From the NCBI GenBank assembly GCA_001804285.1, contig MHFR01000037.1:149952-213951 (forward strand): 64,000 nucleotides of DNA. The letters are read 5' to 3'. Origin of the DNA: Candidatus Danuiimicrobium aquiferis. GTDB taxonomy: Bacteria > Omnitrophota > Omnitrophia > Omnitrophales > Danuiimicrobiaceae. Below the pieces are notes generated by a model. That model searched no databases. It had not been told where the DNA came from and was given only the letters and a program-made list of their open reading frames with translations. The position numbers and the translations under genes are program-made. Shown in pieces: positions 1-35,202 of this stretch; the first letter of the stretch is position 1, and every line of letters begins with the position of its first letter.

Positions 1-3000
1 CAGTGTTGCCGGACGGACAGGAGTCATTGTGACCCTTTCAACTTCAATTACCACTCTCTTATCAGAATCCACCAATGTCACGGGAATCGTCATAACAACT
101 CCCGCGGACGGTGTAATTAGCAACTCTTTCCGGTCTTTCAATTCGAACTTGGCAGATTTCAACGCAACCACAGAATTTTCACTCAGAGCCTTCTGCAATT
201 TATCCGCAGTTTCCGGCTGATCAGAACTCATTCCCATGAATTTCATTCCCGCCAAATCGCTAAGTCGATAAAGAATATAAATAAACTTGGACACATCCTC
301 TACATGTCCGGCCCCGATCAATCTCCGGAGGAGATAAGCCATTCGCATCGTCGTTAGTGTGTTGATAAACACATTGAATTCCGGAGATGCGTTCACGTCG
401 CTGCCCAAAGCGTCAAAGAACTGGGTATTGGGCGCCGTATTTTTGAGGTCTAAAATAACGCCGGTTTCCGTTATTTTAAACGCTTCAAACCGGACCTTAC
501 CCCACTGCTGCTGAAGTGCTTTAAGATTAGCTTTCTCGCGAAAATAAAGCGTATTCGTAAGATGGTTATCCGTCAATTTTCCGAATTTCCCGGTTCCGAC
601 TCCGCTGACATCCAAGACAAAAAGAATCGACATTAAACCAAGGAAACGATCCACATTGATTCCTTCCGCTTCGAGCCCGGTTGTCACATTCGCAGGCACC
701 GATTCTCCGAACGGCAGGCTTCCGAAATCTGCTTCCCGTACTGTCAAATTCCGCAATAGAGCCGCTTCGACAGGATTAAATCCAAATTTTTGAGCCAATG
801 CTTGGATCAAACGGCCTCCAACATCCGTATGGAGCGGCCCTGAAGTCACCACACGGCCGAAATCATGAAGGACAACCGCAACCGCCAATAACTCTTTGTC
901 GCGCGTATTCAATCGATAATAATTCGTCCGGAGCTGATCGAGCAAACTTTCCGAAACGCGCGCTCCTTTTAAAACATGATTCTGGAAGAACTCGAAATTT
1001 CCAAGTCTCAACGCATTCAATCCTTCAAGAATAATATCCTGATGCATCTTAAACGTCGCATAATCGTCTTTTCCGTCTCCGGTTTTCCATGCCACACCGC
1101 GGATTTTTGCCAAATCTTGCCAACCAAAGATACCAACCTGGTTGAATTGACTAAAGACTTTCATCGGATCTATTTCTGATGGCATACTGCTCTTCAAACT
1201 TCCGGGCAGTTGATCAATAAAGGCAAGAACGGCTTGTTCAACCTCGTTTTGCGCACGCGTAAGCGCTGCACCCGTCAATTCGGGATTGTATGCGGCATTC
1301 ACCTTCGCGGAAAATTCGGGCGTCATGATCGAGCGGACTTCGGAGCGCCCGAATGTGCGCATTTTTTCTGCGGCAAACATTCGCGCTTGGTCGTGAATCA
1401 ACGCCTCTGCTTCACCGTATGTTTTGGCATGGATTTCTTTCGCAAACGCAGCCACGCGCGCCAAGAAAATCGATCCCAGTCGGGCAGGGATTAAATTCCT
1501 TTCAGCTTCAGTTTTATTATCCAGATAATATTGAAGAAATGCGAAAACGATTTGTGCCCATTCATTGGAGGTGAGCGAAAAGGCCGCTTGCTCTGCGGCA
1601 TTCAAGCGGTCCAGAATCGGAATGATCTGCGAAAAGCGTTTTTGGTAGTACGCGCGGTTTGCGCGGTAACCACTCTTGAACGCGCTCATCCATTCTTCCG
1701 GATTAAATCCACTCAAAATCAGATCGGCTGCGGGTTGTTTCGCCACTTCCGCCGGCGGACCACTTTCGCCGATCGCTTGAATATCGGAATTGTTTACGCG
1801 CGCCTTCCACCATTCAGGATGATCTTCGATTTGAGCGAACAACAGCTTTACCACTTCAACATACACAGCTAATTTCTCCGGCGATAGCGGACCTAATTTG
1901 TGAACTTTTTCTCCCAGCCAAACGTCTTGAGCCTTCCCACCGCTACCGATCGCCGATGCCGCAAAAAATTCCTCATCCGGAATCACCGCCGTCCAAATGG
2001 CATCTTCCGCCAAGAAATTCGTGAGCATATTTCCCGTCACCGCAAATTCACCGCCGTTCGGCATCCGGATCGATTTTCCGAACATCGCGCTAAAAAACGG
2101 ATACATAAAATGGCTGATCAGGGCAGAATCGTCTTTGCCGTAAGACCTGATGTAATTGGGCGACACATAAGCAGCGTTTCCCCTGAAAACCGGATTCAAT
2201 AATTTTTGTACCCAGTCTCCTTCGATGATTGAATCGCCGTCCAGCGAAAGAAATGCTTTGGCCTCCGCACTTTCCGCCGCCTTCATGGCAAGCCTGGATG
2301 CCCATTTCTTTCCGACAAGTCCCGCATAAGCCTCTTCCTTGCCGAATCCTCTAACAATAATTCGCGTGTCTTGTCCGTTCAACAACGCAGCTTGCTTTTG
2401 AACCGTAGCCATCGCCACTTTTGCCGCAGAGCCTTTCGTCTCCCCAATCACATAAATAAACGCTTTCTGCCCTTCACTTAAATATTCTTGCAGCGATTGA
2501 TGAACCGTCCGTACTAACTGAACGACATCCACCCGGCGTCCGGTTGTTCCCGGTATATTATTCTCAGCAATTTCGTTATACATCGGAATTAAAACAACAA
2601 TGTCAGCACGACCAACTTCCGCTTTCACCGCCGCCAGTTCTTGCGTGTTCACCTGACTCGCATCAAACGCCGCCAGCATCTCCTCTGGCGTCAACGTGCG
2701 GACTTCGGAGCGTTGCACGGTATCCGCAGCTGCCGGTCTGGCAGACGATGGCTCCAGGTATTGCAAAATAATTGACTCCGCAGCAACAGCGGCAGGCGAT
2801 AGGTCTCCCGGTTTATTCTCGATAAATTTTGGCGCCCAATTGTGGATCCTGTCCATCTGCCACCTGATATCTTTCACAAGACCGAGCAACGCATCCGGTT
2901 CATCTTTCTGGAAATGAAGGATTTGCGTTCCGGGAGCAGCGACACCTGTCCGGAGACTTTCCTTTACCTGCTCTATATATGAAGGCAACGCGTACGTATA

Positions 3001-35202: not shown

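Follow-up and report, generated by a model that had tools for sequence, protein, structure and literature searches.

The closest described counterparts of the gene reported here are the giant open reading frames (ORFs) of the bacterial phylum Omnitrophota. The gene lies on the minus strand of a 64,000-nucleotide (nt) stretch of Candidatus Danuiimicrobium aquiferis (contig MHFR01000037.1, positions 149,952 to 213,951, assembly GCA_001804285.1; the whole stretch is called the window below), where it occupies positions 1 to 35,202 and runs off the left edge. ORFs of more than 20 kb have been described from 77 of 116 Velamenicoccia genomes and from 20 of 23 Omnitrophia genomes, as poorly conserved and with few annotated domains (PMC10066038). 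The encoded proteins reach 85,804 amino acids (aa), all have many transmembrane (TM) regions, and 'Archaeovorin' and 'Dockerin' types are recognized; their N-termini mostly lack recognizable domains, with a C39 or S8 peptidase in some (10.1101/2023.11.21.568195). The Nielsen & Lui corpus holds 3,650 proteins of at least 10 kAA (thousand amino acids), and proteins of at least 10,000 aa occur in 43% of the high-quality NCBI metagenome-assembled genomes (MAGs) of Omnitrophota and in 94% of the complete genomes. In a catalogue of 916 proteins 94% are membrane-targeted (TM helices or a signal peptide); 39% of the giants have both a signal peptide and TM helices (SP+TM), 15% have no Pfam match, 80% are sequence singletons, and true nucleotide tandem repeats are few (10.64898/2026.06.07.730766). 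Membrane-anchored multi-enzyme architectures are a described class, and such proteins have been linked to the phylum's host-attached lifestyle, episymbiotic or predatory (PMC10066038; 10.1101/2023.11.21.568195; 10.64898/2026.06.07.730766). A preliminary description of the window had called bacterial proteins of more than 10,000 aa extremely rare and the combination of membrane blocks with enzyme domains unusual; given these frequencies and architectures, neither statement holds for Omnitrophota.

We found that the gene is a modest-sized, typical member of this class, of the SP+TM type. It is uninterrupted over 11,747 codons in the window and 12,008 aa long in public records, and hydropathy gives an N-terminal hydrophobic segment followed by about 35 TM-like segments. 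It is likely, in our assessment, that this is an intact 36-kb gene (12,008 codons) of an Omnitrophota groundwater bacterium that would encode a membrane-anchored multi-enzyme scaffold of the envelope or surface, in line with the documented giants. With these it shares the phylum, a length of more than 10,000 aa, an N-terminal signal peptide, few recognizable domains (including HEAT repeats and a glycosyltransferase), a lack of tandem repeats in the DNA, and a sequence that is essentially unique beyond the shared modules. It stands at the small end of the reported range (12 kAA versus up to 85-147 kAA) and has just one Pfam family above cut-off; its roughly 35 segments, a crude count, compare with a reported mean of 22 TM helices for proteins of at least 10 kAA.

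The Archaeovorin type sequence, a 39,678-aa protein of Velamenicoccus archaeovorus LiM, is three times longer. Both proteins are membrane-anchored and have HEAT repeats, a glycosyltransferase and an N-terminal region without Pfam annotation. The type II secretion and carbohydrate-import genes that neighbor Archaeovorins are absent at the giant gene, where an RND/TolC efflux operon adjoins instead. No Pfam match to PF00404 (dockerin) or PF18884 (thrombospondin (TSP) type-3), the marks of the Dockerin type, was found in the protein, and no C39 or S8 peptidase domain was detected, unlike in some Omnitrophota giants. MARTX and other giant multi-domain toxins are likewise very long chains of exchangeable modules, and MARTX may carry RRSP, a member of the TIKI superfamily that is discussed below; this likeness is one of analogy only. 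In contrast to MARTX, the protein lacks RTX or other adhesin repeats, a CPD autoprocessing domain and a type I secretion ABC partner, and it has many internal TM helices.

The ORF is genuine and codes for protein throughout, because a stop-free frame, a frame-specific codon signal and a codon composition like that of the neighboring genes coincide. The minus-strand frame contains no stop from window position 35241 to position 1 (11,747 codons), and no other open stretch in the window exceeds 1,076 codons. From the base composition of the minus strand a stop is expected about every 17 codons, and the probability of none in 11,747 codons is ~1e-308. We trained a codon-usage model solely on 15 ordinary neighboring genes. 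The giant frame beat the other five frames in 39 of 39 windows of 300 codons, by margins of 53-134 nats, compared with 93-145 nats for the control genes (these being the training genes themselves). The G+C content at the three codon positions (GC1/GC2/GC3) is 0.548/0.373/0.466 in the giant ORF and 0.536/0.353/0.471 in the neighbors. Stop-codon reassignment was rejected as the cause of the open frame, as all three stops are absent from it and the neighboring genes end normally. The start is the ATG at 35202, the first ATG after a purine-rich G-run, which leaves 11,734 codons within the window. Gene callers chose the same start for the public records, and in more than 100 homologues the first residue aligns with residue ~1 of the giant protein. 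The single uninterrupted minus-strand ORF, its start and its 11,734 codons were thus described correctly from the outset. Its true length had been considered unknown, but two public assemblies give 12,008 aa, and therefore just 274 codons are missing from the window. A near-consensus sigma-70-type promoter candidate in the 235-nt gap between the adjacent RND pump gene and the giant gene suggests that the latter is driven by its own promoter.
1..35202, minus strand: giant gene, codons 1-11,734 of 12,008; the stop and the 274 codons before it are outside the window, to the left.
35344..35372, minus strand: sigma-70-like promoter candidate, TTGACA-17-TATACT (consensus scan 11/12, pattern match alone).

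Cysteine usage provides independent evidence of selection on the translated frame, because cysteine codons are avoided in one frame only. The giant protein has 3 cysteines in 11,734 residues (0.03%), compared with 0.83% in the neighboring proteins (P = 5e-38 under the neighbors' frequency). TGY triplets number 329 and 573 in the shifted frames, versus 3 in the coding frame. Some related giants are similarly poor in cysteine (one protein of 5,716 aa has none, and others have 0.07-0.09%), yet others reach 1.06%. Near-absence of cysteine is typical of extracytoplasmic proteins.

Recognizable domains are concentrated near the C-terminus. Pfam was run first on three long pieces, which gave only HEAT repeats and a sub-threshold HD domain, and then on tiles of 700-1000 aa at E<=1. 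The tile scan gave four sub-threshold matches, all in the last 1,500 aa:
PolyA_pol, aa 10253-10275: 16 bits, cut-off 23.
DUF218, aa 10593-10730: 21.6 bits, cut-off 27.6.
Glycos_transf_2, aa 10973-11033: 20.1 bits, cut-off 23.3.
HD, aa 11408-11475: 21.0 bits, cut-off 22, E 4e-4.
A HMMER search with aa 10,246-11,445 against 1.84 billion representative proteins returned 698 matches at E<=1e-3, which resolve into three independently conserved modules (A to C). A word-indexed homologue search with aa 10,535-11,734 returned nothing. Negatives from this search are weak because its index seems to omit very long proteins: no returned protein exceeded 2,061 aa, and the giant never finds itself. The C-terminal cassette is made up as follows:
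5413..6144, minus strand: HEAT / PBS-lyase-type repeats, aa ~9687-9930 (Pfam HEAT_PBS E 3e-10, HEAT_2 E 2e-9; PDB alphaRep E 3e-27).
3583..4665, minus strand: module A, a divergent class-II (CCA-adding / poly(A) polymerase type) nucleotidyltransferase head, aa ~10180-10540 (family profile against PDB).
2713..3570, minus strand: module B, function unassigned, weakly DUF218-like, aa ~10545-10830 (Pfam 21.6 bits versus 27.6).
1303..2685, minus strand: module C, a GT-A glycosyltransferase nearest GpgS, aa ~10840-11300 (family profile against PDB).
583..1113, minus strand: probable HD-type phosphohydrolase domain, aa ~11364-11540, with H...LHDFG...H...D (Pfam HD 21.0 bits).

The HEAT-like repeats and three enzyme-like domains (a nucleotidyltransferase, a GT2 glycosyltransferase and an HD domain) had been noted before. 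The repeats were confirmed (Pfam E 3e-10, PDB alphaRep E 3e-27), and alphaRep/HEAT proteins, at aa ~9687-9930, were the only matches in PDB sequence searches of the giant protein. As for the enzyme-like domains, the nucleotidyltransferase and the GT2 domain stand on their family profiles and the HD domain is just probable, all three scoring below the Pfam cut-offs in the giant itself. A profile of module A (20 members) matched 14 distinct chains of CCA-adding enzymes and poly(A) polymerases (CCA/PAP) in PDB with E values from 1.7e-6 to 8e-4, and no other family at E<0.01. Its motifs are GGSVRD...DIDI and GDILRLYRLKHQFG; motif A, with both carboxylates, reads GGSVRDLFFDKIPKDIDI at aa 10255, and G76, G77, R80, D90 and D92 are invariant in the family alignment. 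GGxVRD...DxD and the downstream DG..YG...GD.LR.LR follow in the same order as in the CCA/PAP structures, and the arrangement seen in CCA-adding enzymes, PcnB and PolyA_pol (PF01743), GGxVRD...DxD and then DG-x-lyG...F.GD.LR.LR, is shared. In NCBIfam, CCA and PcnB models touch the module at the motif only, scoring 15-21 bits where the cut-offs are 290-700. Unlike in CCA enzymes, no tRNA-binding body or tail was recognized, and the module sits in a membrane giant, after HEAT repeats.

For module C the family profile matched GpgS (glucosyl-3-phosphoglycerate synthase) in PDB with E 6e-13 over ~240 positions, followed by mannosylglycerate synthase (1.5e-6), DPMS (Dol-P-Man synthase), MpgS and ArnC. 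The DxD motif is LDGDS, with D149 and D151 invariant in the family alignment, and many stand-alone homologues of 400-440 aa score 26-33 bits, above the Pfam GT2 cut-off of 23.3. Module B has six homologues, which lie inside other long proteins, and no relative of solved structure in PDB. The HD region shares its H, LHDFG, H, D and D positions with a single homologue (P0148) and weakly matches the HD segment of GlnD in NCBIfam (E 2.5e-3). Its best PDB profile match (E 0.35) is not significant, and a single-sequence AlphaFold2 model was uninformative, with a predicted local distance difference test score (pLDDT) of 41.5. On this sequence evidence an HD domain is probable. Bacterial CCA enzymes and GlnD likewise carry an HD-like domain in the same polypeptide as the nucleotidyltransferase; in the giant protein, by contrast, ~1,150 aa and two other modules separate the two, and both have sub-cut-off scores. 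Neither the class-II CCA/poly(A)-type nucleotidyltransferase nor the GpgS-like GT-A module is named in the accessible parts of PMC10066038, 10.1101/2023.11.21.568195 and 10.64898/2026.06.07.730766.

These modules recur in other Omnitrophota proteins of 4-8 kAA, with differing order and copy number. One of 7,840 aa (P0121) has an N-terminal leader, described below, two nucleotidyltransferase modules and one GT-A module; another of 6,366 aa (P0125) has the leader, a 120-aa module that is duplicated in the giant, a nucleotidyltransferase and a GT-A module. HEAT repeats also stand before the nucleotidyltransferase module in P0147 and P0121. The closest relative of the giant gene among the matches listed (L087) is 57% identical over aa 3-705 and shows no similarity in the next ~3,200 codons. 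In the giant gene the conserved modules are in frame 30-34 kb downstream of the start. Judged by these sequence comparisons, the body is a lineage-specific mosaic behind the leader. One segment also stands out in composition:
4003..6402, minus strand: low-GC3 island with a dip in GC, codons ~9601-10400 (GC3 0.235-0.345; ORF mean 0.466, sd 0.057).
The island comprises exactly the HEAT block and the nucleotidyltransferase module, and because the drop in GC3 coincides with them we interpret it as a cassette that was taken up in frame from a source of lower GC. No convincing repeats flank it.

The N-terminal part of the protein contains a segment that resembles a signal peptide, as had been claimed, followed by a conserved leader domain:
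35104..35202, minus strand: signal-peptide-like segment or membrane anchor, aa 1-33 (Kyte-Doolittle 2.09; AlphaFold2 helix at residues 7-30).
33568..35025, minus strand: conserved leader domain, aa ~60-545, with an alpha/beta core split by a ~300-aa helical insertion.
Inspection of the sequence, which is what the signal-peptide assignment relies on, shows a K/R-rich start, a hydrophobic core at aa 12-30 and then AWA|DG. A search with aa 1-1200 found at least 165 proteins, with E values down to 1e-200; the similarity covers aa ~1-560 only and always lies at the match's own N-terminus. Many of these proteins are contig-truncated starts running on into enzyme domains, and others are complete at 900-1,300 aa. 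The domains found behind the leader elsewhere include phosphoglucomutase, UDP-glucose pyrophosphorylase, nucleotidyl-transferase, epimerase, transaldolase, PFK, radical SAM, methyltransferase and SpoIIE. A degenerate-pattern scan derived from the family alignment found at least 472 leader loci in JGI metagenomes, confirmed by tblastn. We surveyed the length of leader-headed ORFs at the 45 loci, among the JGI matches listed (L087-L166), that had at least 3,000 codons of room downstream. At 20 of the 45 the ORF was still open at the edge of the locus (at least 3,800 aa), at another 20 it ended at 1,221-3,581 aa, and at five it ended at ~485-560 aa. These five are either stand-alone leader proteins or interrupted genes.

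An AlphaFold2 model of the leader (alignment of 53 sequences) has a mean pLDDT of 85.5 and a predicted template-modeling score (pTM) of 0.76. It consists of an N-terminal hydrophobic helix, a disordered linker and the alpha/beta core with its ~300-aa helical insertion, the core being a parallel beta-sheet flanked by helices, as in the TIKI/TraB/Ere/ChaN fold. Structural matches of the model, with their scores, were:
2rad, Erythromycin-esterase-like protein: 10.1.
5t09, HopBA1: 9.9.
8bqs_DQ, TraB-family protein: 9.2.
2qgm, Erythromycin-esterase-like protein: 9.1.
6xcq, EreC: 9.0.
2g5g, ChaN: 8.7.
Residues Q92, D93, H95, E123, E176, R461, G486, G487 and H489 are invariant in the family (D93, H95, E123, R461 and H489 in alignments of 114 and of 53 sequences), and the candidate catalytic residues each come after a modeled strand. 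The catalytic site of RRSP consists of Glu3900/His3902, Glu3930, Arg4001 and His4030, and that of Bcr135 includes His85-Glu113 (PMC6254334). The leader has D93-x-H95 with E123 at +28, and R461 followed by H489 at +28; the corresponding spacings are +28 and +29 in RRSP and +28 in Bcr135 (PMC6254334). With its acid-x-His motif, Glu at +28, Arg and His at +28, the leader resembles the 2His/2Glu(+Arg) site of RRSP and the His85-Glu113 pair of Bcr135, and it shares with the superfamily an alpha/beta core with a parallel beta-sheet. The leader differs from the TIKI superfamily in that its core is split by the insertion, its first acid is Asp instead of Glu, it sits at the head of giant multi-pass proteins, and it has no sequence-level link to the superfamily. 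From the model, the leader probably has a TIKI/Ere/TraB/ChaN-like fold, and because of this assignment to a TIKI/Ere-type superfamily we infer that it may act as a hydrolase. The likely extracytoplasmic, membrane-tethered location of the leader would resemble that of Tiki, PrgY and ChaN.

A broader proposal is that the leader is a phylum-wide head module of long and giant Omnitrophota proteins, which would mark them and help in their export, maturation or activation, and that bodies are assembled behind it by in-frame cassette exchange, with the low-GC3 HEAT-nucleotidyltransferase island as a recent example. We put this forward tentatively, and on balance it is more doubtful than not. A conserved leader and visible cassette exchange are not described in the accessible parts of PMC10066038, 10.1101/2023.11.21.568195 and 10.64898/2026.06.07.730766.

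The body between the leader and the cassette contains membrane blocks, protein-level repeats and a long region without recognizable features:
28750..30777, minus strand: first membrane module, aa 1476-2151 (tblastn to L101, high-scoring segment pair with P0018, TM segments).
15259..28191, minus strand: TM-free 'dark' region, aa 2338-6648 (~4,300 aa), with charged helix-favoring stretches and G/S/V/Q-rich linkers.
13951..14805, minus strand: degenerate repeat array, aa ~6800-7084, motif W[LI]K[ED]xLxRxG[IV]D[VL] (self-BLAST E down to 1e-17).
13576..13953, minus strand: duplicated 120-aa module, copy 1, aa 7084-7209 (self-BLAST; also in P0125).
9667..11862, minus strand: polytopic membrane block, aa 7781-8512, with ~15 TM-like segments (hydropathy).
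8437..8814, minus strand: duplicated 120-aa module, copy 2, aa 8797-8922 (self-BLAST; also in P0125).
6676..7380, minus strand: second protein-level repeat region, aa ~9275-9509, ~99-aa period, 2-3 copies (self-BLAST E 1e-6).
The preliminary description had listed at least five TM clusters, a domain-scale duplication and two tandem-repeat arrays. Hydropathy exceeded the first figure, with ~35 TM-like segments in ~13 clusters. The duplication was recovered as aa 7084-7209 and aa 8797-8922 (55% identity, E 1e-38). The two arrays (aa ~6800-7084 and ~9275-9509) are present at the protein level but not at the DNA level, where Tandem Repeats Finder (TRF) reported no repeats of note. The first membrane module is 32% identical to L101 over 707 aa (tblastn) and is the sole part of the body common to another leader locus among the matches listed. 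In the dark region there was no Pfam match at E<=1 beyond noise, no PDB sequence match and no homologue among the leader loci and proteins compared; over residues 1-6,600 as a whole the 700-1000-aa tiles gave Pfam noise only. The polytopic block had no match in Pfam or NCBIfam and no homologue match, the word-indexed search with aa 7,760-8,560 being weak for the reason given above. An AT-skew spike of +0.244 at window positions 10001-12000 arises from this block, because its hydrophobic codons are rich in T on the coding strand. Two candidate features were rejected. An HTH_DeoR match at aa 1085-1104 (window ~31891-31950; 25 bits, above cut-off) was judged spurious because it covers only 20 of 57 profile positions, and a VITTDAD / QPLRW pair (aa 9062 / 9459) considered as GT2 had the wrong spacing and no profile support.

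Taken as a membrane-anchored scaffold, the protein might work as follows. It would enter the membrane via Sec, leaving the leader on the outer face of the cytoplasmic membrane. There the leader, as a TIKI/erythromycin-esterase-type hydrolase with a His/acid/Glu/Arg/His site, would either mature the giant itself or act on an external substrate. The TM clusters would thread the chain repeatedly through the membrane, and the nucleotide- and sugar-nucleotide-using cassette would face the cytoplasm, held on the HEAT scaffold. The whole protein could then serve as a membrane-anchored multi-enzyme scaffold for building the envelope or surface. The gene would evolve through in-frame cassette exchange, of which the low-GC3 HEAT-nucleotidyltransferase island may be a visible trace.

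Several results count against parts of this picture. Over half of the giant protein is without assignable fold or homologue; no orthologue of the giant body was found, the public copies all being at least 99.97% identical. SecA_DEAD, methyltransferase, NUDIX and glycoside hydrolase domains, which are typical of Archaeovorin giants, were not detected by Pfam in the giant protein, and for a divergent SecA_DEAD or SecA preprotein-binding domain there was no match in the tiles even at E<=1. The C-terminal cassette, from HEAT to HD, has no TM segments of its own, and the ~32 hydrophobic segments between the signal peptide and the cassette (a crude count) would put it outside the cell. For the leader, a Foldseek search with the model gave nothing significant (EreC, HopBA1, TraB and Bcr135 were in its top 22), the Pfam models of the TIKI/TraB clan were silent at E<=1, as was NCBIfam, the leader profile was negative against PDB, also with the insertion deleted, and an hhalign comparison with E. 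coli YbaP reached probabilities of just 1.3% and 0.4%. The sole local hhalign match sets TGGFH of the leader on GALHL of YbaP. A sequence-level link between the leader and TIKI/TraB proteins was rejected, as both PDB profile searches and the comparison with YbaP were negative.

Two other accounts of how the product works are unlikely, though each deserves serious weight. According to the first, the gene encodes a polyprotein: one chain is made and then cut into smaller proteins, possibly by its own N-terminal TIKI-like hydrolase. There would then be no mature 12,008-aa entity, which changes the mechanism and not the reality of the gene. The intact hydrolase-like invariant residues of the leader are consistent with cleavage, and so are the separability of the modules, which recur independently in other proteins, and the G/S/V/Q-rich linkers between blocks; in other Omnitrophota giants N-terminal C39 or S8 peptidases occur and cleavage has been proposed (10.1101/2023.11.21.568195). 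However, no cleavage motif was identified, and an exported leader would be across the membrane from the cytoplasmic segments. The TIKI superfamily also has esterases and non-enzymes (ChaN, PMT), so protease activity does not follow from the fold (PMC6254334).

The second account, to which we give the same low standing, follows suggestions in the preliminary description and in earlier papers and is that of an extracellular adhesin or 'coat': most of the chain would lie outside, for attachment to or degradation of the envelope of a host or prey, with the enzyme-like modules acting there. The signal-peptide-like N-terminus, the near-absence of cysteine and the parity of the hydrophobic segments, which puts the C-terminal cassette outside, all point this way. 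The giant of V. archaeovorus is proposed as a surface coat, its peptides rising in attached cells (PMC10066038), and the HEAT repeats of Archaeovorins are predicted to be extracellular (10.1101/2023.11.21.568195). Set against this, Pfam detected no discoidin, laminin_G, dockerin, TSP3, Ig-like or lectin domains in the giant protein, and topology predictions for giants are acknowledged to be unreliable (10.1101/2023.11.21.568195). Moreover, class-II nucleotidyltransferases, GT-A glycosyltransferases and HD domains need nucleoside triphosphates or nucleoside diphosphate sugars, which, by established biochemistry, are cytoplasmic substrates.

Mis-assembly is very unlikely, because several assemblers agree, there are no DNA tandem repeats, and the proteins encoded by the two copies of the duplicated module share only 55% of their residues. 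The concern is that separate genes were joined across internal repeats, or that the assembly dropped a true stop or frameshift; the MAG dates from 2016 and was built from short reads, the protein has internal repeats and a duplicated module, and there is one compositional island inside the ORF. However, the same locus is present in three assemblies of different samples (an NCBI scaffold, an ENA MEGAHIT k141 contig and a Logan contig). The gene is called at 12,008 aa both on GenBank MHFP01000041.1 (GCA_001804245.1, a 200.6-kb contig from Rifle aquifer 'ANAN16' data) and on the independently assembled ENA MEGAHIT contig ERZ27254845 (164 kb), and on both it begins 235 nt after the pump gene, equivalent to window position 35202. 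On the Logan contig it is open for 10,534 aa, up to the contig's own end. Several shorter public contigs also carry the adjacent AcrB-type pump gene (window 35437-38562). Over the 13-23 kb that they share with the window, public copies have 99.97-99.996% identity to it; the window and MHFP01000041.1 do not agree in every letter. No DNA repeats long enough to mislead an assembler were found, and a chimera would have to keep the frame open and maintain host-like codon usage and cysteine scarcity over 35 kb. Such giants have been confirmed on complete long-read genomes of the phylum (10.64898/2026.06.07.730766). The C-terminal 500 aa of the window part had no match in GTDB representative genomes or JGI metagenomes. 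Least probable of all is an open but non-functional frame, a decaying relic or one never translated: over half of the sequence is without homologue or domain, but the stop-free run has a chance probability of ~1e-308, the coding signal is frame-specific all along the ORF, the leader, the nucleotidyltransferase and the GT-A module all retain their catalytic motifs, and cysteine codons are removed from one frame only.

By its own relatives and those of its neighbor, the giant gene belongs to an Omnitrophota genome. In a comparison with 185,579 species-representative genomes, the pump was closest to proteins of Candidatus Omnitrophota MAGs (best 54% identity), with two MAGs labeled Planctomycetia/Planctomycetales also among the best. 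All leader homologues that bear an organism name are from Omnitrophota/Omnitrophica, including Makaraimicrobium (Omnitrophota in NCBI taxonomy), and a paralogue-like protein of 935 aa is found in the sister record GCA_001804255.1, 'Omnitrophica bacterium RIFCSPLOWO2_02_FULL_45_16'.

Upstream of the giant gene is an efflux operon (window 35437-46069, minus strand) that comprises an HTH_3/cupin regulator, a TolC-like OEP gene, an HlyD-type membrane fusion protein (MFP) gene, a 51-aa ORF and two tandem AcrB-type RND genes. Synteny with this RND/TolC operon was rejected as a functional clue, since a homologous long ORF lay beside the pump in 0 of 79 related loci. The MFP gene (window ~42225-43463; L002 5104-6338; L003 5542-5570) differs between public copies of the locus. 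The window and L001 have it intact (412 aa), in ERZ28563641 it is split into 160 and 251 aa, and in MHFP01000041.1, where the alignment to the window breaks, it is uncalled. Farther upstream is a housekeeping block (window 46583-58564, minus strand) with ProRS, an RseP-like M50 protease, Dxr, CdsA, UppS, PurA, SerA, a class-V aminotransferase and trigger factor, with tRNA-Gly and tRNA-Leu nearby; because of this ordinary block, the giant gene is placed in the core chromosome, with no obvious island. At window 61132-62541 a tRNA-Lys (minus strand) is directly followed by a plus-strand tyrosine-recombinase / phage-integrase gene, and GC skew flattens to 0 in the last 2 kb of the window. There may be an integrated element at the right window edge.

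The ORF itself adds little to what is known, as its sequence has been in GenBank since 2016 and Omnitrophota giant ORFs are counted in thousands. The leader, with its short list of invariant residues (H95, E123, R461 and H489), provides a handle on giant N-termini that are otherwise free of annotation, and a leader profile could find truncated giant genes in fragmented assemblies. The locus also illustrates a possible mode of growth for such genes: giants have modules in common but in differing arrangements, resemblance to the nearest relative stops directly behind the leader, and one cassette retains a foreign codon composition. Together, the leader and cassette exchange make the function and origin of the giants somewhat more testable.

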